From assembly GCA_963745835.1 (NCBI GenBank), contig CAVUZH010000024.1, positions 160,001 to 224,000 of the forward strand: 64,000 nt of DNA, read 5' to 3'. The notes beneath the pieces are model-generated. The model searched no databases, was not told the DNA's origin, and saw nothing but the letters and a program-made list of their open reading frames with translations. Origin of the DNA: an uncultured delta proteobacterium. Its GTDB lineage: Bacteria > Desulfobacterota > Binatia > UBA9968. A program made the position numbers and the translations under genes. Of the stretch, positions 1 through 14,541 are shown one piece after another; position 1 is the stretch's first letter; each line of letters starts with the position of its first letter.

Positions 1-803
1 CGGTCCACCCAGAAATATTGAGTGCCGGGATTCGAGTTCAGGTTTTCCCATTTGGGATTTTCCGGATCCGCCGGCGGTTTAACCGGACTCGGCCCAACAT
101 GGCAAAAGCCACACGACATGCCGACTCGGTAAGGACGAATCAGGTTTTTATCATTATAGTAGTCGGGGTCGGTATAAAATTTTTCCGCATTCCATTTCTT
201 TTGCGCCGCTTCGTCGAACTCCGGATTCGGAAACAGGCGCAGGCCGACAATTCCCGACGCATAGCCGTACAACGATCCCACGGGAATGTTCTTACCGCGC
301 GCGCCAATCTGGATGCCGGGATATTTCTGTTCGTTTTCGAACGGGTCCGGCGGGCAATCTTTGCTGCGCGTATCCAGCCACAGGCCGAAGCGATCTTTGT
401 TCGCGGTCTGTGGCTTATCAAAGCAGGGCTCGTTTACCAGGCCAAGTTCTTGCCAACGCGTGTCCCGGCTCAGATGTTTGATGTTGGGATGAGATGAAAG
501 AATCTTAAGTAGATCGACGGCGCCAAAGCTCTCGCTAACGAGGTGATCCCAGAAGCGGTCGTTGCCGCCGCTCCAAACGATCCAGTTGTTGCGTCCCCTC
601 ACCTCATTGGCCGTGAGTTCCACCCCGCCATCCATGTCTTTAAAATAATCCTCATCGGCGGCCGGCAAGCTTTCCGCAGTGCGTCCAACCGTTAACGCCT
701 CGTCCTTAACCGAGCCAGGTTCGGGCGATCCTTTTCCGCATCCGGAAGCTGCGAGGATGACGAGTATCGATAGCGCAGAAAGGTTCAGACGACGGATTTC
801 CAT
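1..803 (-). CDS. Large lipoprotein c-type cytochrome of unknown function (5' part only; runs off the window edge)
   Basis: Missing from the ORF track because there is no stop in the window. Manual translation from ATG 803 gives MEIRRLNLSALSILVILAASG-C (lipobox)...GRNNWIVWSGGNDRFWD...YRVGMSCGFCHVGP (CxxCH near 95-110). Confidence 0.8.
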   Translation of the reverse strand, partial: MEIRRLNLSALSILVILAASGCGKGSPEPGSVKDEALTVGRTAESLPAADEDYFKDMDGGVELTANEVRGRNNWIVWSGGNDRFWDHLVSESFGAVDLLKILSSHPNIKHLSRDTRWQELGLVNEPCFDKPQTANKDRFGLWLDTRSKDCPPDPFENEQKYPGIQIGARGKNIPVGSLYGYASGIVGLRLFPNPEFDEAAQKKWNAEKFYTDPDYYNDKNLIRPYRVGMSCGFCHVGPSPVKPPADPENPKWENLNSNPGTQYFWVD

Positions 804-888
804 TGTTTGTTTCTCCCCAACCACAACGCTGCCATTCCAAAGAATCGGCCAGCTTTTCGGCAATAGATCTGTTTCGACTTAGCGAATG

Positions 889-2349
889 TCAAAGGCTCTT
901 CAGATATTCGATCAACGCGTCTTTTTCCGGGGCCGACAAGTTGACGCCGAATTCGTGGCCCTGGTTGCCGCTGGCGCGTTCACTGACATCATATTTGGTG
1001 CCGATTCGTTGCGCCTCCGGACCTTGGCTAACGAACCCGACATTCTCCGGATCGTAAACATCATAACCGCGATAGAATACCTTTGGCCGCTCGGCGACCG
1101 CTTTGAGCAAATCGCGCAGAGTCGGCACCGAACCGTTGTGCAGATAAGGCGCGCGCAGCCAGATGCCGTCCAAGAACTGCGCGATGTATCCACTCGGTTC
1201 ATTTTCGACCAGACCGCGCCGCTCGATGCCGAAATTGCGCACGACTTTGTTGGACTCAATGGCTGCCTGCTTGCTCCAGGTTTTTAGCCGCTCGCGATCC
1301 GTGCCGACCTCTTCAACCGGCACGCGGGTGCCGGTGCGCTCGCTCGCGTGACACCTGGCGCAATTAGCATCAAAAATAGTCTTGCCCAGTTTGGCTTGTT
1401 CCGCCTTGATCGGGAATGGATACTTTGGCGCCTGCAGTTCACTCAAGTATTTCACCAGCCAATCAATCTGCTCCATGAAATCGTCGCGATCGTGCGGCTC
1501 GGCATTGAGCAGGCCCAAGGCCGAATCGATGATCACCGAACGCGCATCATGGCTGTCGCCGGCAAGGTTCATTAGCATGCCTTTCTCCGGCTGGTACTTT
1601 TTTAAATTCCAGACCGACGGCATGTCGGTGGGACCAATCGTATCGTCCATAGGCCAGTTGAGTAGGAAATATTTGGTGAGATTCATGGCATCATCGCGCC
1701 CCCGGCCCCACAACGGGAACTCCTCGTGATACACCCACTTGAATTGCGCTTCGCGTTCGAGCAAACGCTTTTTGGTGATCGGAATCAGCACGTAGCGATA
1801 AATCAGCCGATCCAACAGCGGCAAATCATAAACGAGCGCGATTTCGCTCATGATCTCATCGGCGTTGAAGCGGGGATCCCTGGCACAGTCCACGACGAAG
1901 CGGAAAAATGCCTGCAGATTGAGCGTGTGATTGGGCCCTGCCGGCACAAACACAGGATTTTCATCGGCGCTCTTACGATAGCTGGCGGTGTGGCACGAGG
2001 CGCAGTTATTAGCCACGCGTGGAAAGCCGATCACTTTTTTAGTGAAACCGATCGGCAGCTCCTGACCCTGCTCCCACGCGACTCCTAAGGAAGCATAACC
2101 GCCAGGCCCCGGCAACTTCTCGGGAAACATGCGCGGCAGTACGAAAAAGATCCAATACGGTATGCCGGCATCGTGCTCCGCGCCAATGGAGCCATATTTA
2201 AAACGCATGTCGGGTGTGGCGGTCACCCAGTTAGGTTGCGGCTCCTCACGGAGAAATTTATACCAACCGATAATACCTCCGACAGCAACGAACAGGAGCA
2301 CAAGCAGCAAACAAGTTTTCCACCAGGATTTTTTTTGTCCTGCAACCAT
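889..2349 (-). CDS. Membrane-anchored di-heme cytochrome c, RoxA/MauG-like
   Basis: N-terminal TM helix; two CxxCH motifs (CASCH, CARCH); WLRAPYLHNGSVPTL; C-terminal GNQGHEFG...DALIEYLK. Confidence 0.85.
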   Translation of the reverse strand: MVAGQKKSWWKTCLLLVLLFVAVGGIIGWYKFLREEPQPNWVTATPDMRFKYGSIGAEHDAGIPYWIFFVLPRMFPEKLPGPGGYASLGVAWEQGQELPIGFTKKVIGFPRVANNCASCHTASYRKSADENPVFVPAGPNHTLNLQAFFRFVVDCARDPRFNADEIMSEIALVYDLPLLDRLIYRYVLIPITKKRLLEREAQFKWVYHEEFPLWGRGRDDAMNLTKYFLLNWPMDDTIGPTDMPSVWNLKKYQPEKGMLMNLAGDSHDARSVIIDSALGLLNAEPHDRDDFMEQIDWLVKYLSELQAPKYPFPIKAEQAKLGKTIFDANCARCHASERTGTRVPVEEVGTDRERLKTWSKQAAIESNKVVRNFGIERRGLVENEPSGYIAQFLDGIWLRAPYLHNGSVPTLRDLLKAVAERPKVFYRGYDVYDPENVGFVSQGPEAQRIGTKYDVSERASGNQGHEFGVNLSAPEKDALIEYLKSL

Positions 2350-2385
2350 CGAACCTCCAGGGTCACTCAGGAGCGCACCCGCGAT

Positions 2386-3906
2386 TTAAAAAGTCTTGAG
2401 GTACTCGATCAAAGCGTCTTTGTCTGCGACCGGCAGCTCGGTGCCGTAGCGGTTTCCTTCATGACCTTGATTCGAATTGCCGGGCTCAGCTGTATCGTAA
2501 AGAAAATATTTCCGGCCTTTCTCTTCGCTGACGTCGCCAACAAAGCCAACCTTCTTCTGGTCGTAGACATCGTAGCCGCGGTAAAAAGTTTTCGGTCGTT
2601 TGTCACTGGGCTCCAGCAGGTCGCGCAAGGTCGGCACCGAGCCGTTGTGCAAATACGGCGCCCGCAGCCAGAGCCCGTCGAGCGGACTATTGGCATAACC
2701 GAAAGTTTTGCGGAAGTGCCTGAAGCGTTCTTCGGCGTATCCGGCGAAGATCATATTTTGATTGACGGCAACCTCATAGGTGTAGGAGTCGAGACGTGCG
2801 CGGTCGGTGCCAATATCCTTGATCGGCACCACCTTGCCGACATCTTCGCCGCGAAAATCCTTGCCATCGGCGCCATGGCATTTCGCACAGTACTCTTTGT
2901 AGATCGGCGCGCCTTGGGCGGCGAGATCATTGTTGATCGCAAACGGATAGGCTGGCGCGGCGAGATTGCGGACCCAGTCGGCGACGCGTTTCAAGCTGGC
3001 CCGGTCGCCGGTGGGCGGCGTGATGCCGGTGCCCATGGCGGCGCTGCGGTTACGCTCCTCCAGCGACACGTTGTTACCGTCCCAATGCAAGTTCATTTTG
3101 AGACTTTCGCGTTGGTCCTGATTCCAAATGGACGGAAAATCCGTCGTGCCAATTCGTTCCTCCTTCGAAAGCTGATCGGGCGGGAAATTAAAATAAGCTT
3201 TCAACGGGTTGAAGGTGTCGACTCGCCCCGGACCCCACTCGGGTTGCTCTTTGATGAAATCCAGCCGATCGCGCAAAGTCAGGATTCGTTCGCGCATGAA
3301 ATAAATGCCGTAGAAACGCAGTACCAGCCGATCGATCATGGGTAAATCGTCCAGACCTTCGCGTTCTCGGATAACCTTAATCTGCCGCAGGATGTCCCTT
3401 GGCGTAAATCTCCTGTCCTCGCCGGTCGCGAACAGAAATCTCATGAAGGCGCGGAAGTCAAAAGTATTTGCCGGCATTGCTGAATAAACCTTGGGCTCGC
3501 TTTCCGCGCTTTCGCGCACGGTTCCCGCATGGCAAAAGGCACAGTTGAGCCACACTACGTCAAAGCCGAGATAGCGGCGCTGGGACATGCCGACCGGAAG
3601 ACTTTTCCCCTTCTCGAAAACAAAGCCGACCGACTCCCAGCCACGGCCGGGCTGCGGCAACTTGTCTTCAAACAGCTCAGGTAAGGCGCGCCAGATCCAA
3701 TACGGCACGCCAAACTCGTGCTCGCTGCCGAGGGACCCATACTTGAAATGCTCGAGATCGTCTTTGTAAACCACCGGAGTATCGGCGCCGAAACGTCCCA
3801 GCAACAAAGCTCCCCCCACCATAGCCAGTACCAGCACCACAACAGTGATCCAACCGATGAGCTTCAGAATACGTTCGCCCGGCGACGCTAGTTCAGGCTG
3901 CGCCAT
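2386..3906 (-). CDS. Membrane-anchored di-heme cytochrome c, RoxA/MauG-like (paralogue of 889-2349)
   Basis: Start moved to ATG 3906 (GGGGAG RBS); TM helix; CAFCH and CAKCH; WLRAPYLHNGSVPTL; shares FKYGSxGxEHxxGxPYWI with its neighbour. Confidence 0.85.
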   Translation of the reverse strand: MAQPELASPGERILKLIGWITVVVLVLAMVGGALLLGRFGADTPVVYKDDLEHFKYGSLGSEHEFGVPYWIWRALPELFEDKLPQPGRGWESVGFVFEKGKSLPVGMSQRRYLGFDVVWLNCAFCHAGTVRESAESEPKVYSAMPANTFDFRAFMRFLFATGEDRRFTPRDILRQIKVIREREGLDDLPMIDRLVLRFYGIYFMRERILTLRDRLDFIKEQPEWGPGRVDTFNPLKAYFNFPPDQLSKEERIGTTDFPSIWNQDQRESLKMNLHWDGNNVSLEERNRSAAMGTGITPPTGDRASLKRVADWVRNLAAPAYPFAINNDLAAQGAPIYKEYCAKCHGADGKDFRGEDVGKVVPIKDIGTDRARLDSYTYEVAVNQNMIFAGYAEERFRHFRKTFGYANSPLDGLWLRAPYLHNGSVPTLRDLLEPSDKRPKTFYRGYDVYDQKKVGFVGDVSEEKGRKYFLYDTAEPGNSNQGHEGNRYGTELPVADKDALIEYLKTF

Positions 3907-4119
3907 AGACGTTCTCCCCCCGTAATGGTTGCTCGCTGCACTGGCGTTGTCACGATCATCAAAAGTTAGTGCCGTCGTTTGACGTGAATCGATTGAAGAT
4001 TGGCTCGAGATCGAAATAGCTGGAGTTGTTCGTGAAGAATATGGCTTCGATCCTGGGGGCCCCCGCGGCAGGATCGCCCCGAACCGCGGTGTCAGGTTCA
4101 CAGCATCGGCTTTATCTGA

Positions 4120-4557
4120 CTAGGAGTTAAACTTCAGGGCAAAATCAATCAATCGCTTTTTCTCCCAATAAACCTTCCCCAAGTAGAGGCCGGGTTCGAT
4201 TTGGCGGATCTCATCACGTATCCACTGAGCGATAATGGAGGTATCGGAGTAATCCAGAACAATACAGTCTTTGCCGTCGAGCCAACTAGGTGCTTTGTAA
4301 ACTTTGGCGATGATGGCATTGAGACCAAAAGGAAGAATTCGGTTTTTCAGGACTCCCTTGCCGGCATCGAAGACTTTACCTTGCCAGGCAAAGTTACTGA
4401 TGAACTTGGCGATGTTCGAACTGAACTTCGTGCCGGGCGCAACGATCGCGGTTCCATCCGCTTCGCCGTTTGGAATCTCGCCCGCGGCGCATTTGCCGAA
4501 AAGGTCGTCGAGGTCTGCTTGCGACATGCTCAAAAGTTTCTCGACATCGTAAGCCAT
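4120..4557 (-). CDS. Conserved hypothetical protein, possibly a GXWXG/DUF4334-like beta-barrel
   Basis: 145 aa; GGAGG RBS; motifs WQGKVF, IVLDY, IRDEIR; first gene of the cytochrome cluster. Confidence 0.7.
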   Translation of the reverse strand: MAYDVEKLLSMSQADLDDLFGKCAAGEIPNGEADGTAIVAPGTKFSSNIAKFISNFAWQGKVFDAGKGVLKNRILPFGLNAIIAKVYKAPSWLDGKDCIVLDYSDTSIIAQWIRDEIRQIEPGLYLGKVYWEKKRLIDFALKFNS

Positions 4558-4773
4558 GGTAGTTTCCCTCCTCCCGTCAGATATATATTCGAGGAAGATG
4601 TCACTCGTTGAAACGAACTAACGACGACTAATCTCATACGACTGCGCCCGACGTCAAGAAAATTTCCTACGGCTGAAGAAAATCGCAGATGAGAATTAAA
4701 GTGTGCACGCATCGCGCGATTTTGAATTGTGAATCGAAGTAACTTTTGTCAAGCTACAATCTAAGTGGAACAC

Positions 4774-4983
4774 ATGAAAACAAAAACAGCGATCATCTCT
4801 ATCGATGATTTAAAATCGGATGATTTGCCGGCTCTGCGCCAAACGCTCGGCACATTGCCTGGAGTTCAGAGTTTAGATTTCAGCTTGGAGCGCAAGGTCG
4901 CGGTGATTGATTTCGATCCCAAACAGTCTCACCTTGACGATTTTTTGCGCGCAGTTTTGAAGGCGGGATTTAGAGTAAGCTAA
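4774..4983 (+). CDS. HMA/copper-chaperone-fold protein lacking CxxC
   Basis: LPGVQSLDFSLERKVAVIDFDP...AVLKAGF matches the HMA pattern; the protein has no cysteines. Confidence 0.65.
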   Translation: MKTKTAIISIDDLKSDDLPALRQTLGTLPGVQSLDFSLERKVAVIDFDPKQSHLDDFLRAVLKAGFRVS

Positions 4984-4986
4984 CAG

Positions 4987-5133
4987 CCGTTCAACCGTTC
5001 AAAGTTCACGGTTCTAGGCTAACACTGCGAGTGCTCACGACGCAGCAGTGTTCGTCCCGAGCTTGTTTACTTCAAATCATTCCGGCTCAACAGCGTACGG
5101 ATTGAACGTTCGAATGTTGAACCGTTGAACGGT
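4987..5133. repeat. GTTCAA-array inverted element A
   Basis: ccgttcaaccgttcaaagttcacggttc (4987-5014) and ttgaacgttcgaatgttgaaccgttgaacggt (5102-5133) face each other between convergent genes. Confidence 0.7.
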
Positions 5134-5135
5134 AC

Positions 5136-6491
5136 TTACTCTCCGGCCACGGTCATCTTAGAAATTTTAATGGTAGGCGCGGCGATGCGGCCTCTCATTT
5201 CGAGATCGTTGCCGATCGTCTCGATATTTTGAAACATCTCTTTGAGATTCCCCGCAATCGTCACCTCTTCGACGGGATACGCGAGCTCGCCGTTTTCGAT
5301 CCAGATGCCGGCGGCGCCGCGCGAGTAATCGCCGGTTACGAGATTAACACCGAAGCCGATGGTCTCGGTTAAATAGAGGCCCCGTTTCACAGAACCGATA
5401 ATCTCGTCAGGCGCTTGCTTGCCGGGCGCAAGATAAAAGTTGGTGGGCGCCACACCCGGCGGTTCACCTATCGAACGAGAAGCATTTCCGGTCGAAGCCA
5501 TGTTTAACTTTTTGCCGCTGTAAGTGTCGAGCAGATAGCTGCGCAAAAACCCATTCTCAACTACAGCCTTTTGGGTAATCGGCAAGCCTTCGGAGTCAAA
5601 TGGTTTCGAGCCGAGCGCTCCGGGAATGGTTCCATCGTCCCAAACCGTGGTTAGATCCGACGCGATCTTGTTGCCGAGCTGACCGTTTAGAAAGGATGCG
5701 CCTTTGTACAAAGAGTATCCCGACAACGCGGAGGACAGATTCCGCAACAGCGAAGCCGCCATATCGGGATCGAAAACAATCGGCACTTCGCAAGTTTTAA
5801 TTTTACGAGCGCCCAGACGGCGCAATACCCGTTCGGCGGCTCTTTTGCCAACGCTCTCCGCCGAATCTAATCGGGCAAATTTTCGATTGGACGAATACCA
5901 ATAGTCTCTCTGCATCGAACCATTTTGCGACGCCACCGGAGCGACTGAATGACCGAAATTCGATCCGTGATACTCGCCGCAGAATCCATGACTGCTGGCG
6001 TAGATAACCCGACCGGATTGGTTGGAAAATTCCGCCCCTTCAGAGTTGGTAATGCGAGGATCGAATTCCATGGCCGCCTTCTCGGCCGCCAGCGCGATGG
6101 CGATTTTGTCATCGACAGAAACTGAGTCCGCCGCATTATCGAAGAGATCCATGTCGGGAATATCTCGAGCCAACAATGCAGCGTCGGGCAAGCCGCTGAA
6201 CGGATCTTGAGCGGTAAACCGGGCCATATTGATGGTATCCTCAACAAGTTTGTCGATGGCTTGTCTTGAAATATCCGAAGTTGAGGCAGAGGCGGAGCTA
6301 TTGCCGTAAAACAACCGCAAACCCAGCCGCTTTTCTTGAGCCTGGCTAATTTTCTCCACTTCGCCAAGACGAACGGTGACAAAGAAAGAGTCTCCCTCCA
6401 CCATGACGATGTCGCCCTGAGTCGCTCCTTTAGCTTTGGCCGTGTCGAGAACCTCGCGCGCCAATTGCTGACTGAGATCGAGTCGTTCCAT
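5136..6491 (-). CDS. pmbA: Metalloprotease PmbA/TldE
   Basis: MQRDYWYS, KPFDSEG, GDYSRGAAGIWIENGE; adjacent to tldD. Confidence 0.93.
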   Translation of the reverse strand: MERLDLSQQLAREVLDTAKAKGATQGDIVMVEGDSFFVTVRLGEVEKISQAQEKRLGLRLFYGNSSASASTSDISRQAIDKLVEDTINMARFTAQDPFSGLPDAALLARDIPDMDLFDNAADSVSVDDKIAIALAAEKAAMEFDPRITNSEGAEFSNQSGRVIYASSHGFCGEYHGSNFGHSVAPVASQNGSMQRDYWYSSNRKFARLDSAESVGKRAAERVLRRLGARKIKTCEVPIVFDPDMAASLLRNLSSALSGYSLYKGASFLNGQLGNKIASDLTTVWDDGTIPGALGSKPFDSEGLPITQKAVVENGFLRSYLLDTYSGKKLNMASTGNASRSIGEPPGVAPTNFYLAPGKQAPDEIIGSVKRGLYLTETIGFGVNLVTGDYSRGAAGIWIENGELAYPVEEVTIAGNLKEMFQNIETIGNDLEMRGRIAAPTIKISKMTVAGE

Positions 6492-6530
6492 GTTTCCTTC
6501 CCGCTTACTGCCTGAACTATTCCGGGTCGA

Positions 6531-7982
<1,452 letters not shown>

Positions 7983-8149
7983 GTTAGATTCTCCCTTGAC
8001 GATTTGTACCACCTCGAACCTTCGCTTTAAAGACATTCGCTCACGCGCATTGAACTGACCTGCTCTGCCAAAAATGGCCTAAACTGCTCGGTTGATCGTT
8101 CTAATCGGTATGGGTTAGAATCCGCTCCATCAAAACCTAGGTGAGGACA

Positions 8150-9218
8150 ATGGCACAAAAAAAAATCATTCATGTGGTCGGCACCGGAACTATCGGCGAA
8201 CCCCTCATCGGGATTCTCTGCACCTTCAAGGAACAGTTCGGCATAGATGAAGTGACTTTTCATAAACGGACGCCGCTTCTCACCGACCGTTCAAAGGTCA
8301 TGGTCCTATGCAATCGAGGCGCGCAACTTTGCGTCGATAAAGAACGGCGGCAAAAATTCGTCGAGATGGGCATGACCCCGACCTATGAAGCTGAGGAAGC
8401 CATTGAGCGCGCCAGCGTAATTATCGACTGCACACCGGTCGGCAACGACAACAAAGAGAAGCTTTACAACAAGTACGCTAATAACGGGCGCGGGTTTCAT
8501 CGCTCAAGGCAGTGAGTACGGATTCGGCAAGATGTATGCGCGTGGCATCAACGACAAGGCTCTGATCAAGGGAGAGGACCAGTTCATCCAGGTCGTAAGC
8601 TGCAATACTCACAACTTAGCCGTGCTCATCGATACCATCGCATTAGGACCGGAAAAGGAAGACAATTTAGAAGAAAGCCGTTTTGTCTGCATGCGCCGCG
8701 CTAACGACATCAGTCAGGAAGGGGATTTCATCCCGGCGCCAGAAGCAGGCAAGCACGATGATACCGAGTTCGGGACTCATCAAGGCCGAGACGCGCATTA
8801 TCTGTTCAAGACCCTGGGCATGGACCTGAATATCTATTCCTCGGCTCTCAAGCTAAACACCCAGTATATGCACACAATTCATTTCGACCTTAAGTTACGG
8901 CGCGGCATTGACAAAGATCAATTGATGCGGCGACTGCAGTCCAACGGCAGGGTCGCGATGACCAACAAAAAATCATCCGCTTCGGTCTTCTCGTTCGGCA
9001 GGGATCACGGGCTCTTCGGCCGCATTTTGAATCAAACAGTGATTGTCACACAAAGCTTGGCGATGAGAGGAGACCGCGAAATCATCGGCACTTGCTTCAC
9101 GCCGCAGGACGGCAATTCGCTATTCAGTAGCTTGGCGGCAACCATGTGGTTTTTGTATCCAGACTCTTACGAGGACAAGCTGAGCCCGGTTCGAGATTAC
9201 TTCTTCAACGAGATCTAA
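8150..9218 (+). CDS. Archaeal-type (class II) GAPDH-like dehydrogenase, one frameshift near 8493
   Basis: Joining the two ORFs gives VVGTGTIG (Rossmann), VIIDCTP, FIAQGSE, QVVSCNTH (catalytic Cys), RRAND, GTHQGRD, YMH. Confidence 0.75.
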
Positions 9219-9250
9219 CCTTGCATATAACGGCGTGGCTCGGCGCCGTT

Positions 9251-9688
9251 CTATTCCCTCACCGTTTCCGCGGCAACATCATCAAACCTGACCGCGTCCC
9301 CGGCTTTAAAACCGTATCGGCGTGAAAGTCCGCCGTTAATTTCGAGTACATACTGACTCGGAACCGATACCGAACGGCCATCCAAGGAAAACGGCACGGT
9401 TTCATGGACGATGCCGACGATTTTGCGATCGCGGCTGATGAAAATCATGTCGAGAGGAATCGGCGTGTTCTTCATCCAGAACGAATTGATTTTCTCGCCT
9501 GGAAAGATAAACAACATCCCGTGATTGGGCGGTAGCTCGCGCCGATACATCAGGCCAACCTCGCGCCTTTCAGGCGTGGCGGCGATCTCAATCTGAAAGC
9601 TAACCTCACCTTTGGTGGTTTCAATAGTCACTTTGGGTTGTCCCTTGCAAGCGATTGGCATCATTGAAAATACTGAGCTCAATACCAA
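9251..9688 (-). CDS. DUF192 family protein (start uncertain)
   Basis: EIAATPERREVGLMYR, GMLFIF, FWMKNTPIPLDMIFI, YVLEINGG. Confidence 0.85.
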   Translation of the reverse strand: MVLSSVFSMMPIACKGQPKVTIETTKGEVSFQIEIAATPERREVGLMYRRELPPNHGMLFIFPGEKINSFWMKNTPIPLDMIFISRDRKIVGIVHETVPFSLDGRSVSVPSQYVLEINGGLSRRYGFKAGDAVRFDDVAAETVRE

Positions 9689-9719
9689 AGCTCCAGCATA
9701 CCTAATCCAGAACCGTGCT

Positions 9720-11714
9720 CTATTTACGAATTCTTCTTGTGACCAGTTCTGCAATATCGAACACCTCCGGCCCGCTACCCTCTTCTTTAGCTGTCTCCTC
9801 GGTAAGCATTCGCAGACAAAATGGACAACCGGTTGCGACGGTTTGCGCGCCGGTTTGCTTGAGCTCACGAAACCGATTGGTACTCACCCGCTCTTTGCCT
9901 CTCTCCTCATCCTTCCAGAACTGTCCGCCACCGGCGCCGCAACAAAAGCTATTGTTCCGAGTCCGTTCAGGCTCAATGAGATTGGCGCCTGTCATCTCGA
10001 TCAGCGAACGAGGCTCGTCGAAAATTCCATTGTGCCGGCCGAGATAGCAAGGGTCGTGATAAGTTACCGCGGTAGCCGAGTTTCGCTCGATCTTGAGCTT
10101 GCCATCGCGGATCAACTCGCTAATGAATTCGGTGTGATGTCTTACTACGTAGTTGCCGCCAAACTGCGGGTATTCTTTGCCAATTGTGTGAAAGCAGTGC
10201 GGACAAGTCGTTACGATGACTTTGGCTTTGATAGCATTCAATGCGGTGACGTTCTCGTCGGCCATCTGGGCAAACAGGTATTCGTTGCCGGTGCGCCGAG
10301 CGGTATCGCCCGTGCACTTTTCAGTCTTGCCTAGTACTGCCCAATTTAAGCCGGCGGAATGGAGAATTTCCGCCATGTTGCGCGCGATCTTCTGCGCACG
10401 CGGATCGAACGAGACTGCGCAGCCAACCCAGTAAAGCACGTCCGGATTGGCATTCTGATCAATCGTCGGAACCGGGAACGGCAAATCTTTCGTCCAGACC
10501 AGCCGCTCCTCTGCTGAAATCCCCCATGGGTTTCCTGCCTTTTCCATCTGATTGAATGTGTTTTTAAGACCGTTGGGAAATTCGGCGGCGCTCAACACCC
10601 GTTCACGCCTGACGTCGATGATGTGCAGCATCTGCTCATTGCCCACCGGACAAACCTCGATACAAGCGTTGCAGGTGGTGCAAGCCCAGGCAGCCTCTTC
10701 ATTGAGAGCGAAATCGAGTAAAGGGCGCGGGCTCTCCGCTCCCGCAGCAAACTTCGGGAAAAGATCGTTTAGCTCGAATCGTTCGTTGATCAATATCGCT
10801 GCCGGGCTAAGTGCTTTGCCGGTGTTGGTGGCGGGACAGACATCCTGACAGCGGTTACACATGATGCAGCTGTACGCATCCATCAGGCGCGGCCACGCGA
10901 ACTCCTCCAATTTGGATGCGCCGAACACTTCCTCATTCTCAAAATCCATGGGCTGCAGCACACCCGGATTCTTTTTCTGTAGCGCTAAATTGATCGGCGC
11001 CATGAATAGATGGATGTGTTTGGTGCGCGGGAAGTACGGAATGAAAACCAGGATCGACCCTAAAGCGCCCCACCAAAAGAAATGATGGAAAATCTCAAGC
11101 GCGCCTGGAGTCATCCCGGAAAATAGCGCCGCAAATGCCGTGCTCACGGGTTGCCACCGGTCCGCGCCTTCGAGGGCAAGCTGGCAGGCTTTGTACATCA
11201 GCCGGCTGCCCACATGAAAAAGTATAAAAGCCGAAACAATCGCCGAATCGCGGCGAATGCCGTTGCGTACTCCCTCTCGGACCGGCACGTTCGCGGGAAA
11301 GTCGAAATCTTTAGGCCGGACAAAGAAACGCCGGATCACCAAACTAATAATCCCGATCAAGACAGCTGCAGTTAGGATATCGGCGGTCAGATTAAATGCG
11401 TTCCACAGACCGCCCCGGGTGTGCAAGGCTAGATAACCCTCGAGCACATCGACTAAATTGACCAAAAAATAAAAAACGAATCCGTAGAAAACCAGAGCGT
11501 GAAAGAAAGAAACCAGCGGCCGCGTCCGAAACACGGAGCGCTGAAGAACAACATTCACCACAGCATCGATAACCCGCCTAGGTAGCTGATCGAAGCGACC
11601 ATCCGGCTTGCCGCGAGCGATGCTTCGATAAACGTCGTAAAATCTTCGCCCGCCGTAATAGAACGATGCCGCCAACAACAGAAAGAACAGTATTTTTTCG
11701 AGCGACGTAAGCAT
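9720..11714 (-). CDS. FadF/HdrD-like membrane Fe-S oxidoreductase with CCG domains
   Basis: Multi-TM N-terminus; CIMCNRCQDVCP and CTTCNACIEVCP; YHDPCYLGR; CCGAGGG; GCPFC. Confidence 0.9.
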   Translation of the reverse strand: MLTSLEKILFFLLLAASFYYGGRRFYDVYRSIARGKPDGRFDQLPRRVIDAVVNVVLQRSVFRTRPLVSFFHALVFYGFVFYFLVNLVDVLEGYLALHTRGGLWNAFNLTADILTAAVLIGIISLVIRRFFVRPKDFDFPANVPVREGVRNGIRRDSAIVSAFILFHVGSRLMYKACQLALEGADRWQPVSTAFAALFSGMTPGALEIFHHFFWWGALGSILVFIPYFPRTKHIHLFMAPINLALQKKNPGVLQPMDFENEEVFGASKLEEFAWPRLMDAYSCIMCNRCQDVCPATNTGKALSPAAILINERFELNDLFPKFAAGAESPRPLLDFALNEEAAWACTTCNACIEVCPVGNEQMLHIIDVRRERVLSAAEFPNGLKNTFNQMEKAGNPWGISAEERLVWTKDLPFPVPTIDQNANPDVLYWVGCAVSFDPRAQKIARNMAEILHSAGLNWAVLGKTEKCTGDTARRTGNEYLFAQMADENVTALNAIKAKVIVTTCPHCFHTIGKEYPQFGGNYVVRHHTEFISELIRDGKLKIERNSATAVTYHDPCYLGRHNGIFDEPRSLIEMTGANLIEPERTRNNSFCCGAGGGQFWKDEERGKERVSTNRFRELKQTGAQTVATGCPFCLRMLTEETAKEEGSGPEVFDIAELVTRRIRK

Positions 11715-11897
11715 TAGCGCTTATTAACCTCCGGCTCTGTCTACTTTATCGAATTTGAATGAAGCGGATGACCGGACTGAGCCCGGCGCTGGTAAATCAT
11801 CACGAAATGTGGCGAACCAGTGCCGCAGACTGAGTCGAGTAAATGAGTTGACTCTACAGGAAGCAGTATTTATGAATCAACGGGCGGAATCAGCGAA

Positions 11898-12677
11898 TTA
11901 TCCGGCGTACCCCAACCGTCTTGAAAGATCACGTCCGGAATCAAGAATCAAAGGCGAGATATCGTTTCGGAGCTTCTCCAGAGTCAGTCGATCACTCGGT
12001 CCCACTATAGCCAGCGCGCCGACCAGGCTCCTGGTGTAGTCTCTGACCGGGACAGCGATCGAACTGATCTCATTGATAAACTCTCCGTCGTCGATGGCAT
12101 AGCCGATCTCTCCGGTTTCTTTGACCTGCTGAGCCAGCCCTCTGGTATCGGTAATCGTCTTATCGTTGTAACGCTTCAAAGGGTCAAGGTCGCCAAGCGA
12201 CACACCGCCATCCGACTCAAAAGCAAGGTATACCTTACCTACCGCGGTGCAATGCGGCGGCAGTACCGAGCCGAGAAACGAGACAACTCGCACCGGTCGC
12301 GCCGGCTCGACAAAGTCCAGCGGCACTATCCCCGCGCCTTTTCGAATCGCCACGAACGCACTCTCTTTAGCTGACTTCGCCAGCTCTTCAAGAGTTGCGC
12401 GGGCCTGTAACAACAAACCCATCTGGTGTATGAACGTTTGCCCAAGCTGCAGACACTTGAGGCCGAGGCGATAATTTTCCGAGACTTTGTTCTGTTCGAT
12501 GTAGCCGCGCGCCTCGAGCGTGGCCAGCAGACGAAAAACGTTGTTCTTGTGAAGCTTCAATCGTTTGCTCAACTCAGTAACGCCTATCTCATCAACATTA
12601 CCGTTGAACTGCTCGAGGACATCAAGGGCGTGCGATACGGATTGAATTACGTAATTAGATTTCTCCCGGCGAACCAT
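11898..12677 (-). CDS. IclR family transcriptional regulator
   Basis: IQSVSHALDVLE HTH, PHCTAVGK, SIAVPVRD; ATG 12677 with GGAGG RBS. Confidence 0.92.
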   Translation of the reverse strand: MVRREKSNYVIQSVSHALDVLEQFNGNVDEIGVTELSKRLKLHKNNVFRLLATLEARGYIEQNKVSENYRLGLKCLQLGQTFIHQMGLLLQARATLEELAKSAKESAFVAIRKGAGIVPLDFVEPARPVRVVSFLGSVLPPHCTAVGKVYLAFESDGGVSLGDLDPLKRYNDKTITDTRGLAQQVKETGEIGYAIDDGEFINEISSIAVPVRDYTRSLVGALAIVGPSDRLTLEKLRNDISPLILDSGRDLSRRLGYAG

Positions 12678-12901
12678 GTCTCCTCCTGCCTCAGTCTGTG
12701 TAGAAATCAAAATAGACTGGTATGGGCCGTTCCAAAAAAGCGTTTTAACCTATATCGCCATCCGCACCTTGTCAACGAACGCCAAAAACAGCCTCTGATA
12801 TCCGCGTTTACCGAAAAAGCTGATCCTGGCTGTATACAGATAAGTCAACCTCCATCTCAGCTCGTCTTGACCGGTATAAGACAATAAGGCACACTCGTGC
12901 C

Positions 12902-12982
12902 ATGACTGAGCGGTCGGGATTTGCTGTCTTGATTGAAAGCTGGTGGCGCAGGCAGCAGTCGCTCCGATCGGCCTGTGGCTAA
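12902..12982 (+). CDS. trpL: trp operon leader peptide (26 aa)
   Basis: MTERSGFAVLIESWWRRQQSLRSACG*; tandem TGG TGG codons directly upstream of a terminator and trpE. Confidence 0.75.
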   Translation: MTERSGFAVLIESWWRRQQSLRSACG

Positions 12983-13045
12983 TTCCAGTCAGTTTACTAA
13001 CATTGAGGAGGGCCGTAGGCGGTTAGCTTATGGCCCTTTTTGTTT
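12971..13045 (+). promoter_or_regulatory. trp attenuator (antiterminator and intrinsic terminator)
   Basis: Terminator stem agggccgtaggc/gcttatggccct (13009-13037) followed by a T run; gcctgtggct (12971-12980) can pair instead with ggccgtaggc (13011-13020). Confidence 0.75.
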
Positions 13046-13053
13046 GTGAGCCT

Positions 13054-14541
13054 ATGATTCACCCGACATTTGAAGAATTCTGCCGGTTGGCGGAGCAAGG
13101 CAACCTGGTTCCGGTCTATCAGGAACTGCTCATGGACTTGGAAACGCCGCTCTCATTCTTTAAGCGCCTCGAACGGGATCGTTACGCTTTTCTGCTCGAA
13201 AGTGTTGAAGGTAGCGAACGTTGGGCGCGTTACTCTTTTTTGGGAAGCCGGCCCCGGCTTGTTTTTAAAAGCCACGGCAAGCAGGTCGAAATCATCGAAG
13301 ACGGTAAGAGTAGAAAGTTAGCCTCCGAAATGCCCCTCGATACTCTGAAACAGCTCGTGGGGAATTATCGACCGGTTACAGTGCCGGGTGTTCCGCCCTT
13401 TTTCGGTGGCGCCCTTGGTTACGTCGCCTACGATGCCGTCGAGCAATTTCACGGGATTGGCAACAACAAACACTCTCCGCTTGATGCCCCGGAGATTTTC
13501 TTTCTGTTCGTTCAAACTCTCATCGCTTTCGATAACTTGAAACATACCATCAAGATCATCGACAATGTCCAGTTAGAAACAGGAACTGATCTGCGAACCG
13601 CCTACAAGGAAGCGAGCGACAGAATCCGCAAAATTATCTCCTCGCTGCAGAAGAAACCACGCGGAATCGAACCTCGTGAGTTGAGCGATGGCAAAGCGCA
13701 GAAGCAGTTTCACTCCAATCTGAACCGCGATGGTTTTCAGAAAGCGGTCATCAAGGCCAAGGAATACATCCAGGCGGGCGATATCATTCAAACAGTCCTA
13801 TGTCAGAGGCTCGAAACCCAAACGGTTGCGGATGCCTTTGAAATTTATCGGGCTCTGCGCTTTATCAATCCTTCGCCGTACATGTTCTATCTCGAGCTCG
13901 AGGATCTACGGATCATCGGCTCGTCGCCTGAGACGATGGTGCGATTAACCGGCGACATGATTGAGCTTCGGCCGATTGCCGGAACCCGGCCGCGGGGCGC
14001 CACACCGGAAGAAGAACAGACGCTTGAAGCCGACCTGCTTGGCGACCCTAAAGAACGCGCTGAGCACATCATGTTGGTCGATCTGGGACGAAACGACGTC
14101 GGGCGCGTCGCGGAGATCGGCAGTGTCGAAGTCAACGAGCTCATGGGCATCGAACGCTACTCTCATGTCATTCACATCGTTTCCAACGTGCGCGGCAAGC
14201 TCGAGGCTGATAAGAGCCCATTTGATCTATTTGTCTCGGCGTTCCCTGCGGGAACGGTTTCTGGAGCGCCCAAGATTCGCGCGATGCAGATCATTAGCGA
14301 GCTGGAGCCGGAGAGACGCGGGCTATATGCAGGCGCCATCGGATACTTCGGCTATAACGGCAACCTGGATACCTGCATCGTCATTCGGACGATTGTGATG
14401 AAAGGCAGCAAAGTATTCATCAACGCGGGAGCTGGAATTGTCGCCGACTCCGATCCGGACATGGAGTATCAGGAGACTCTGAATAAGGCGCGGGCGATGT
14501 TTCGCGCCGTGGAGCTCGCCGAACAGTGGAGCAAGGCATGA
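13054..14541 (+). CDS. trpE: Anthranilate synthase component I
   Basis: LLESVEG (Trp feedback site), NPSPYM, PIAGT, AEHIMLVDLGRND, GTVSGAPK. Confidence 0.93.
   Translation: MIHPTFEEFCRLAEQGNLVPVYQELLMDLETPLSFFKRLERDRYAFLLESVEGSERWARYSFLGSRPRLVFKSHGKQVEIIEDGKSRKLASEMPLDTLKQLVGNYRPVTVPGVPPFFGGALGYVAYDAVEQFHGIGNNKHSPLDAPEIFFLFVQTLIAFDNLKHTIKIIDNVQLETGTDLRTAYKEASDRIRKIISSLQKKPRGIEPRELSDGKAQKQFHSNLNRDGFQKAVIKAKEYIQAGDIIQTVLCQRLETQTVADAFEIYRALRFINPSPYMFYLELEDLRIIGSSPETMVRLTGDMIELRPIAGTRPRGATPEEEQTLEADLLGDPKERAEHIMLVDLGRNDVGRVAEIGSVEVNELMGIERYSHVIHIVSNVRGKLEADKSPFDLFVSAFPAGTVSGAPKIRAMQIISELEPERRGLYAGAIGYFGYNGNLDTCIVIRTIVMKGSKVFINAGAGIVADSDPDMEYQETLNKARAMFRAVELAEQWSKA

Follow-up and report, generated by a model that had tools for sequence, protein, structure and literature searches.

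A widespread tandem pair of membrane-anchored, RoxA-like di-haem proteins: a candidate lipid oxygenase/peroxidase system in an uncultured Binatia bacterium

Background

The rubber oxygenase RoxA is a secreted, soluble protein of about 70 kDa (648-662 amino acids [aa]) that carries two c-type haems; a review describes its N-terminal haem (H195) as the O2-binding active site and H641 as the second (sixth-ligand) axial ligand of the C-terminal haem (PMC6311187). The nearest characterised work that our literature search found concerns the oleate diol synthase 'FadCcp' of Pseudomonas aeruginosa, which comprises the 10S-dioxygenase PA2077 and the 7,10-diol synthase PA2078. These are periplasmic, RoxA-like proteins encoded in tandem, 43% identical to each other and carrying the motif PYFHNGSVP, that oxygenate oleate; both PA2077 (634 aa) and PA2078 (624 aa) are soluble proteins with a cleavable signal peptide and reportedly work as monomers (PMC4496055). 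Here we describe a related operon of four genes at positions 1-4557 of a 64,000-nucleotide stretch of DNA from an uncultured member of the Binatia (contig CAVUZH010000024.1, positions 160,001 to 224,000); this whole stretch is called the window below. All four open reading frames (ORFs) lie on the minus strand, and in the order of transcription they encode a 145-aa protein (g145), two paralogous di-haem proteins (dh1 and dh2), and a large lipoprotein (B, or 'lipo') whose ORF leaves the window at its edge.

As modelled, dh1 and dh2 share with RoxA and RoxB the overall fold, the two c-type haems, and the motif PY[FL]HNGSVP, which is spelled in the window as it is in RoxB; dh2 in addition shares with RoxA a C-terminal GxxxGH...ALIEYLKT motif, in which its His465 falls on H641. 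The two proteins differ from RoxA in their length (506 and 486 aa), in an N-terminal transmembrane (TM) helix that looks uncleaved, and in sequence (18% identity), and they miss the equivalog models of the Rox proteins by more than 800 bits. Unlike the Rox proteins, which act on rubber, they appear to form a conserved heteromeric pair with gene neighbors that point to fatty acids. Compared by description with PA2077 and PA2078, they are likewise tandem RoxA-like di-haem paralogs (39% identical, as against 43%) with PY[FL]HNGSVP and a periplasmic location; no partner of the B or g145 kind is described for PA2077 and PA2078.

A first-pass annotation of the sequence had proposed an uncharacterised operon of three exported c-type cytochromes, two of them RoxA/MauG-like, that might act together on a possibly lipophilic substrate. 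We recovered all four co-oriented ORFs, including the two di-haem paralogs with PYLHNGSVP, and asked what families they belong to, how widely they are kept together, and what their partners and neighbors suggest about their function.

Family placement and fold of the di-haem pair

The gene for dh1 (2386..3906, minus strand, as are all operon features given here) lies in an ORF listed as 2386-4101, which is open up to a GTG at 4101. The likely start is the ATG at 3906, with GGGGGAG ahead of it and a hydrophobic helix just after it, giving a protein of 506 aa. This N-terminal TM anchor (3796..3867) exceeds a hydropathy of 1.6 over 19-mers in the checked translation. The first haem motif, CAFCH (3529..3543), belongs to the putative catalytic haem, and the second is CAKCH (2875..2889); C122, C125, and H126 of the one and C340, C343, and H344 of the other are invariant in the dh1 alignment, as are P417-G422, V424, and P425 of PYLHNGSVP (the 'MauG motif', 2632..2658), with S423 nearly so. 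The gene for dh2 (889..2349) encodes 486 aa with the same layout: a TM anchor (2260..2325; a single helix over residues 6-32 in the model), CASCH (1990..2004) and CARCH (1348..1362), each invariant in both dh2 alignments, and PYLHNGSVP (1123..1149), which aligns with RoxA residues 496-530. Further on, the segment GNQGHEFG (946..969) contains the invariant His465, which phmmer aligned to RoxA His641 in a comparison with 4b2n. Over their whole length (about 500 residues), dh1 and dh2 are 39% identical (E 2e-105).

Both proteins match the Pfam model PF21419 (RoxA-like cytochrome c-like), dh1 with 59.1 bits and dh2 with 61.3 bits (E values of 3e-16 and 6e-17), as well as generic cytochrome c domains. 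These E values, together with the 6,600-7,900 homologs found in a protein collection for each family searched (dh2, g145, and B), place the operon genes far beyond chance. Both also pass the NCBIfam model NF040606 ('di-heme-cytochrome C peroxidase', CytoC_perox; cut-off 150 bits), dh1 with 186.6 bits and dh2 with 155.7 bits, each match being marginal and split over two stretches; a canonical member of that family, a 625-aa lipoprotein encoded directly ahead of a lipoxygenase gene and the dh1-dh2 pair in locus L025 (4130-6007), scores 508.5 bits end to end. Read from its probable start at Met34, the canonical protein has CAGCH as its first haem motif, with the His at position 130, the motif and position listed for PA2077 and PA2078 (PMC4496055). 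On the NCBIfam equivalog models of the Rox proteins (NF050033, NF050034, and NF051462), dh1 scores 87.1 (RoxC), 67.7 (RoxB), and 58.5 (RoxA) bits and dh2, in the same order, scores 69.6, 67.6, and 56.8 bits, far below the cut-offs of 900-1000. On the MbnH model TIGR04039, dh2 reaches 19.9 bits against a cut-off of 362.85 and dh1 has no match, and neither protein matches PF03150 (CCP_MauG) at E values up to 0.1.

A sequence search of the Protein Data Bank (PDB) returned RoxA (4b2n) as the sole solved relative, over the PYLHNGSVP region and the C-terminal GNQGH...ALIEYLK motif. We built an AlphaFold model of dh2 from a 23-sequence alignment (mean predicted local distance difference test [pLDDT] 90.6), and a Foldseek comparison of this model with the PDB again gave RoxA 4b2n as the single strong match (E 9.4e-13, TM-score on the query [TMq] 0.58, 18% identity). 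The next matches are hydrazine synthase gamma, MauG, YhjA, and bacterial cytochrome c peroxidases (bCcPs), with E values of at least 5e-3 and TMq of at most 0.26; those to bCcP, MauG, and YhjA have TMq 0.18-0.26 and E of at least 1e-2, and the match to MacA is also weak. Thus bCcP, MauG, MbnH, BthA, and YhjA resemble dh1 and dh2 in belonging to the same broad superfamily, with two c-type haems and an HNGS-type motif (YhjA is anchored, too), whereas the low TMq values, the lack of a PF03150 match, and the MbnH score set bCcP, MauG, MbnH, and YhjA apart from them. The feature set of the Rox proteins (two CXXCH motifs, the MauG motif PY[FLM]HN[GS]SVP, and a distal His at the H641 position) recurs in the pair, the first two features in both proteins and the distal His as H465 of dh2.

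On the strength of the model, we regard dh1 and dh2 as compact, membrane-anchored versions of the RoxA fold. This bears out several proposals of the first-pass annotation, namely that the two proteins are RoxA-like, fall short of RoxA in length (486 and 506 aa, compared with 648-662), and are tethered to the membrane (one N-terminal hydrophobic helix in each). Its novelty claim would have been undone had they fallen inside a characterised clade; judged by hidden Markov model cut-offs and the fold search, they lie in none, be it Rox (57-87 bits against 900-1000), MbnH (19.9 against 362.85), or PF03150. The superfamily is known and the subfamily has been named by NCBI, but as far as our searches reach, a conserved anchored pair with partners and a lipid context appears to be undescribed. 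In the literature we found no experimental function for the NF040606 name, no assay, structure, or paper for the membrane-anchored dh1/dh2 family, and for PF21419 a single mention, in a preprint that lists the model among plastic-enzyme domains.

Spread and conservation of the pair

We scanned species-representative genomes and analyzed the best 80 loci (L001-L080), scoring gene presence by tblastn with the window proteins and full-length references. The loci span eight named phyla (39 Pseudomonadota, 16 Acidobacteriota, nine Verrucomicrobiota, seven Cyanobacteriota, two each of Binatota, Nitrospirota, and Planctomycetota, and one Gemmatimonadota; two are unassigned). Homologs of the operon proteins are named in their sources 'hypothetical protein', 'mono/diheme cytochrome c family protein', 'RoxA-like', or 'cytochrome c5', and clustering of the dh2 homologs at 50% identity leaves 4,845 representatives at E values up to 1e-3 and 409 at E values up to 1e-30. 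Cultured carriers include Rivibacter subsaxonicus DSM 19570, Alteromonas sp. ASW11-130, and Aetokthonos hydrillicola CCALA 1050.

Where at least 1.7 kb of upstream sequence is present, dh1 is followed in tandem by dh2 in 67 of 73 loci; five of the six others are single-copy, and in the sixth, L047, the contig ends within dh2. Flanks of 7.5 kb or more on each side are present at 44 loci, of which 43 carry the tandem, 33 carry B, 26 a g145-type gene, 23 both of these, and eight neither. The co-occurrence of the genes in other genomes, on which the first-pass annotation had staked its case, is therefore found, in 43 of 44 loci for the tandem pair and in 23 for both accessory genes. The NCBI locus tags of matches (ACM3SP_24470 and 24485; ACREQO_08820 and 08830) agree with the gene order of the window.

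In a FastTree phylogeny of 146 rows, rooted on one long-branched canonical NF040606 protein and leaving out high-scoring segment pairs shorter than 1,250 nucleotides or on the other strand, dh2 sequences form a clade of 73 rows (support 99) and dh1 sequences a clade of 69 rows (support 80), with three single-copy sequences apart. This topology points to an old duplication maintained as a pair. A block HWDGNN..EERN, invariant in dh1 and absent from dh2, suggests that the two proteins have different roles. The window dh2 nests among sequences of Nitrospiraceae and Betaproteobacteria on a short branch (76% identity to L002), and the window dh1 sits on a long branch with a best identity of 61%, which suggests unequal rates or separate histories for the two genes.

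Four gene orders recur. The window has g145-dh1-dh2-B (order A), which also fits partial loci from Binatia and Pelagibius (dh2-B in L001 and L068; dh1-dh2-B with no g145 match in L076). Order B, B-g145-dh1-dh2, at times with a second g145 copy, is found in Verrucomicrobiota and some Acidobacteriota. Most Pseudomonadota and Nitrospiraceae have order C, in which B is followed by a long form of g145, a 675-aa protein with two CXXCH motifs, dh1, and dh2. In order D (cyanobacteria, Bryobacterales, and others), an Old Yellow Enzyme (OYE) gene precedes dh1, and a protein with four TM helices may stand between dh1 and dh2. The additional two-CXXCH protein of order C (about 675-740 aa, with a signal peptide; for example, L005 6263-8290) lies between long g145 and dh1 in 29 of the 80 loci, matches no Pfam or NCBIfam family, and is absent from the window.

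Modelled complex of dh1 and dh2

The first-pass annotation had suggested that the cytochromes form a complex, and the modelling supports this in silico for dh1 and dh2. We modelled the periplasmic domains together (dh1 38-506 and dh2 32-486, each with its own 21-row alignment), and the interface score ipSAE was 0.91 in three runs, as against 0.01 for the best of three controls. The mark that this score passes is reached by 58 of 80 solved complexes and by two of 110 mismatched pairs, a calibration that is rough because own alignments were used. At least 97% of contacts are common to the three runs, with partner pLDDT of at least 91. The interface is asymmetric, with dh1 residues 236-247, 296-298, 362, and 377-402 facing dh2 residues 69-99, 129-132, 171-175, and 448. 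Recall of a solved complex by the predictor is unlikely, because RoxA is a monomer by description and the bCcPs, which do form homodimers, are only remotely related in fold. A hand count of interface conservation found no enrichment: six of 32 dh1 residues and nine of 29 dh2 residues are invariant or nearly so, compared with 26% and 25% overall, and the count thus lends the complex model no further support. From the model, dh1 and dh2 probably form a dimer.

The lipoprotein B and the barrel protein g145

The window holds the first 267 codons of B (3..803, starting MEIRR), with a signal peptide ending in a lipobox-like LAASG-C (741..803) and the haem motif CGFCH (99..113). Over these 267 residues it is 85% identical to an 808-aa ortholog (2455-4881) in L001, a Candidatus Binatia metagenome-assembled genome whose dh2 is 90% identical to the window dh2. 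The full-length ortholog has two haem motifs (CGFCH241 and CARCH480), a degenerate MauG motif, and the C-terminal signature GH..G...ALIEFLKTF; its NF040606 score is 41 bits (35-42 bits across B orthologs, below the cut-off of 150). We found 6,621 homologs of B, typically 797-798 aa long, and no match of the B fragment to PDB sequences below an E value of 0.5. By these motifs B is a third, distant RoxA-like di-haem paralog, a lipoprotein of about 800 aa, and all three cytochromes of the operon belong to one RoxA-like superfamily; the first-pass annotation, which counted two of the three as RoxA/MauG-like, was right about dh1 and dh2 and has to be widened to take in B.

The first gene of the operon, g145 (4120..4557), is an ORF with a strong ribosome-binding site, GGAGGAGGG, 5' of the gene, and its product is predicted to be a cytoplasmic, calycin-like beta-barrel. 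It has no signal peptide and no hydrophobic 19-mer, so that the protein in its window form is, by its sequence, not exported. An AlphaFold model (mean pLDDT 80.1, predicted TM-score 0.77) shows two N-terminal helices followed by an eight-stranded barrel, in line with the barrel that the first-pass annotation had supposed. Its best fold match in the PDB is 4mve_A (Tcur_1030, an uncharacterised Thermomonospora protein; TM-score 0.64, E 4.6e-4, probability 1.00), with which it shares the eight-stranded barrel and the N-terminal helices at 14% identity. Further matches, to fatty-acid-binding protein (FABP), cellular retinoic acid-binding protein (CRABP), bile-acid-binding protein, lipocalin, and avidin, are weak (FABP, CRABP, and lipocalin at TMq 0.28-0.41 and E of at least 0.13). 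By sequence, some 7,700 homologs of g145 were found, every one labelled 'hypothetical', and the protein matches nothing in Pfam or NCBIfam, alone or over 30 aligned relatives; none of these 30 matches PF14231 or PF14232 (GXWXG/DUF4334) at E values up to 10. Against PDB sequences, g145 itself gives nothing below an E value of 0.5 and its family profile stays at chance level (E of at least 0.5). Among the named clusters of the ESM Atlas, GXWXG + DUF4334 comes closest (score 0.87, a lead only), and 4mve is presumably a member of the same GXWXG/DUF4334 group. On its modelled fold, g145 is plausibly a lipid-binding barrel.

The long form of g145 found in order C clusters begins with a lipoprotein signal or signal anchor and, judged from these N-termini, should be periplasmic, whereas the short and fused forms should be cytoplasmic.

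Fusions tie these partners to the di-haem proteins. In four of the 80 loci (L032, L033, L034, and L048) and in two of 150 representatives, an in-frame fusion puts g145 at the N-terminus of dh1, before the TM helix. In one of the 150 representatives (P0346, 1,025 aa), an OYE domain, one TM helix, and a RoxA-like di-haem domain lie on a single chain. Because c-haem attachment needs the periplasm, the fused g145 and OYE domains would be on the cytoplasmic side. A protein with four TM helices stands at the N-terminus of the di-haem protein, in one or two copies, in 11 of the 150 representatives. Such a protein, s141 (about 141 aa, four hydrophobic helices), is also encoded between dh1 and dh2 in 14 of the 80 loci (L049 [9460-9885], L050-L053, L055, L060-L062, L065, L069, L071, L074, and L079), and in L051, L062, and L074 it is fused to the N-terminus of dh2-type proteins. 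We considered whether the cyanobacterial 141-aa ORF is a diverged g145 and rejected this (hhalign probability 0.08); it is a four-TM membrane protein.

Gene neighborhood

To survey the neighbors, ORFs of at least 90 aa flanking the 80 loci were clustered by all-against-all BLASTP, the families were extended by phmmer, and each family was named by Pfam or NCBIfam matches of its representatives only. At least one lipid-related family is present at 38 of the 80 loci. Acyl-lipid hydrolases occur at 20: a family of about 900 aa at eight loci (a partial patatin match in four of the six members scanned, two of them above the gathering score), Tle1-like proteins at eight, patatins in L005 and L061, Lipase_3 in L032, DUF676-type proteins in L049 and L055, a DUF900 protein in L040, and a GMC-hydrolase fusion in L074. 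In L005 (Ca. Nitrotoga), the patatin-like phospholipase has a lipoprotein signal (11705-13120) and lies downstream, and a ferritin-like protein (2328-2837) is encoded upstream. OYE (PF00724) is directly upstream of dh1 at 16 loci, GMC oxidoreductases are found at 12, and short-chain dehydrogenases (SDRs) at five.

Lipoxygenase (LOX) and animal haem peroxidase are rare in bacteria. LOX (PF00305) is found at five of the loci; it directly follows dh2 in three Nostocales loci (in L053, about 1.4 kb after dh2), and in L025 (Methylococcaceae) it lies between the canonical NF040606 lipoprotein and dh1. Animal haem peroxidase (PF03098) is found at six (L001, L023, L052, L054, L057, and L080), from Binatota, Pseudomonadota (gamma and alpha), Cyanobacteriota, and Gemmatimonadota, and has a signal peptide or anchor in four of them (L001, L023, L054, and L057). 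In L023 and L057 a co-oriented operon runs from the haem peroxidase through a catalase-related protein (mini-catalase) to the pair, and a P450 is co-oriented beside the haem peroxidase in L054 (after it) and L080 (directly before it). We see in these sets a likeness to the 10S-dioxygenase and catalase-related lyase of cyanobacteria and to the fusions of dioxygenase and P450 found in fungi.

In the ortholog locus L001, which is the closest to the window, the region after B (4909-9355) holds a GMC oxidoreductase in two overlapping ORFs, a split that may be a frameshift, and, convergent to it, a 932-aa exported animal haem peroxidase homolog. A GMC oxidoreductase and an exported haem peroxidase may also lie just to the left of the window.

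The scan of flanking ORFs, which did not extend to the whole window, turned up no mau or mbn genes, and to that extent the statement of the first-pass annotation that no such substrate genes are visible holds. Its guess of a lipophilic substrate gains independent support from the lipase, LOX, haem-dioxygenase, and OYE neighbors and from the gene fusions. Fatty acids or acyl lipids are better supported as the substrate than polyisoprene.

Proposed function and alternatives

We propose that dh1 and dh2 face the periplasm as a pair of di-haem oxygenases/peroxidases whose substrates are unsaturated acyl lipids, the paralogs taking successive steps, a reading in which we place about as much trust as doubt. 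It brings together a fold of RoxA type, a conserved pair that is probably a heterodimer, anchoring in the membrane, the fusions to barrel and ene-reductase domains, and the lipid-related neighbors; we infer the chemistry and the substrate from relatives, fusions, and neighbors. The operon product would be a lipid-directed haem-oxygenase/peroxidase system at the cytoplasmic membrane, in which dh1 and dh2 would be type-II-anchored with their RoxA-fold domains toward the periplasm. As motifs and fold suggest, the N-terminal c-haem, with His as proximal ligand, would be the catalytic site by analogy with RoxA, and the C-terminal bis-His c-haem would serve as a relay. Acting as the modelled heterodimer, dh1 and dh2 would work sequentially on unsaturated acyl chains, whether those of membrane lipids or of free fatty acids that a neighboring lipase has liberated. 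Dioxygenation would fall to one paralog and rearrangement or reduction of the hydroperoxide to the other, an arrangement like that of PA2077 and PA2078. B would be a third related haem enzyme in the periplasm, and g145, with its plausibly FABP-like fold, might sit at the cytoplasmic foot of dh1 and hand over or receive lipid.

Several observations weigh against this proposal. The likeness to PA2077 and PA2078 is by description only, and those proteins are soluble, 624-634 aa long, and reportedly active as monomers, whereas dh1 and dh2 are anchored and 506 and 486 aa long. The complex model cannot separate a heterodimer from homodimers of close paralogs and gives no affinity. The neighbor counts are raw, without a background frequency, and 42 of the 80 loci have none of these neighbors within the flanking DNA examined; order C, the commonest architecture, mostly lacks LOX and haem peroxidase and has a lipase in few loci. 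A tblastn search of the 64-kb window with 14 neighbor-family representatives found no match, and for the source genome the lipid link comes from the ortholog locus L001. Some of the hosts, Ca. Nitrotoga and Thiobacillus among them, are not organisms known for polyunsaturated lipids. Finally, depending on the lineage, the g145 domain seems to be on one side of the membrane or on the other, which the model leaves unexplained.

The alternative that survives best, though we consider it unlikely, keeps the same substrate class and changes the purpose: the pair would be a lipid-hydroperoxide peroxidase that protects the cell by reducing acyl chains that have become peroxidised on the membrane's outer face, with lipases excising damaged chains and OYE, GMC, and SDR enzymes detoxifying the resulting enals, aldehydes, and alcohols. 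Such membrane repair would suit the name of the NCBIfam subfamily (a di-haem cytochrome c peroxidase), a fold within the bCcP/MauG/RoxA superfamily, the OYE genes directly upstream at 16 loci and fused in P0346, the lipases at 20 loci, and the wide spread among aerobes of eight named phyla, cyanobacteria included. It sits poorly with the co-oriented fatty-acid dioxygenases (LOX, and haem peroxidase with mini-catalase or P450), which produce hydroperoxides on purpose; moreover, no electron donor for a peroxidase cycle is evident, and RoxA, the nearest relative with a solved structure, is an oxygenase rather than a peroxidase.

The peroxidase name could also be taken more literally, with dh1 and dh2 as membrane-tethered periplasmic H2O2 peroxidases fed by cytochrome c or quinol, like bCcP and YhjA. 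The NF040606 name, the weak fold matches to YhjA, MacA, and bCcPs, a bis-His second haem that could serve for electron entry, and the ferritin-like gene upstream in L005 would all agree with this. We nevertheless find it quite improbable, given the absence of a PF03150 match at E values up to 0.1 and TM-scores to bCcP, MauG, and YhjA of only 0.18-0.26; the removal of H2O2 would not call for a retained pair of diverged paralogs with a third beside it, and the lipid-related neighbors and fusions would be left unexplained.

RoxA being the only strong structural relative, a RoxA/RoxB-type cleavage of polyisoprenoids (carotenoids, squalene or hopanoid precursors, polyprenols, or quinone tails) in or at the membrane has to be weighed as well, and an anchor would suit a membrane-embedded isoprenoid. 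PYLHNGSVP is the RoxB form of the motif (PMC6311187). Yet the Rox equivalog scores of 57-87 bits against 900-1000, a length about 150 residues below that of RoxA, and the fact that the proteins are not secreted all speak against it, and it is fatty-acid enzymes, not isoprenoid or carotenoid genes, that recur among the neighbors; we judge this explanation very improbable.

Least credible of all is a respiratory or electron-transfer cytochrome module, or a MauG-like modification of a partner protein encoded in the cluster: three to four anchored c-type cytochromes in the operon, the MauG motif, and the occurrence in chemolithotrophs (Ca. Nitrotoga and Thiobacillus) would fit, but the fold is of RoxA type with a haem site modelled on an O2-binding enzyme, the genes are also found in cyanobacteria, Verrucomicrobiota, and Acidobacteriota, the scanned neighbors include no precursor genes of the mau or mbn kind, and the MbnH score is 19.9 against 362.85 bits.

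Surroundings of the operon in the window

The operon is flanked by housekeeping genes (PmbA/TldD, trpE/G, an IclR regulator, and UvrB). The IclR-family regulator (11898-12710, minus strand) is about 7 kb from the operon; another is encoded directly upstream of the Rivibacter cluster (L016 968-1771). Divergent from the operon, positions 4765-4983 (plus strand) encode a 72-aa protein that weakly matches the UxxU metal-binding (seleno)protein model NF041115 (29.6 bits against 95). A type II (archaeal-type) GAPDH-like gene is present in two plus-strand ORFs in different frames (8141-8515 and 8532-9218; 124 and 228 aa), which cover positions 5-103 and 133-293 of NF003251 well below its cut-off; the split could be a frameshift, a pseudogene, or an assembly error.

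Scans for other signals were largely uninformative. Positions 1-5200 contain two promoter-like sites (3.6 expected) and 11 terminator-like sites (6.8 +/- 2.6 expected), none of either kind tellingly placed between genes. An Rfam scan of positions 1-6000 gave no match, and ARAGORN found no tRNA in the window. The GC content of positions 1-4500 (0.54-0.56) is not distinct from that of the rest of positions 1-12000, and we accordingly make no claim of an island.

Conclusions

To our knowledge, bacterial oxylipin biology consists of very few enzymes, namely P. aeruginosa LoxA, PA2077/78, and a few cyanobacterial LOX or cyclooxygenase (COX)-like proteins. The family described here has thousands of metagenomic homologs for each component searched, and its pair is kept across eight named phyla. 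A bolder extension of our proposal, which is possible but which we hold as doubtful, is that the loci encode an unrecognised trans-membrane machine for lipid oxidation in at least eight named phyla, in which a periplasmic RoxA-fold heterodimer with B and a cytoplasmic FABP-type barrel and/or OYE, in some lineages joined to it in one chain by a single TM helix, together with lipases and in some cases LOX or COX-like enzymes, would make or process oxylipins from membrane lipids. If that were true, it would be a prokaryotic counterpart of the oxylipin cascades of plants and animals, far wider than the diol synthase of P. aeruginosa.

If the lipid reading itself is right, the operon would offer a testable entry to the oxidation or repair of membrane lipids in non-pathogenic environmental bacteria, a source of new O2- or peroxide-using c-haem catalysts with compact RoxA folds, and a role for the GXWXG-like barrels and long OYE variants encoded alongside. 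The cultured carriers make experiments feasible.

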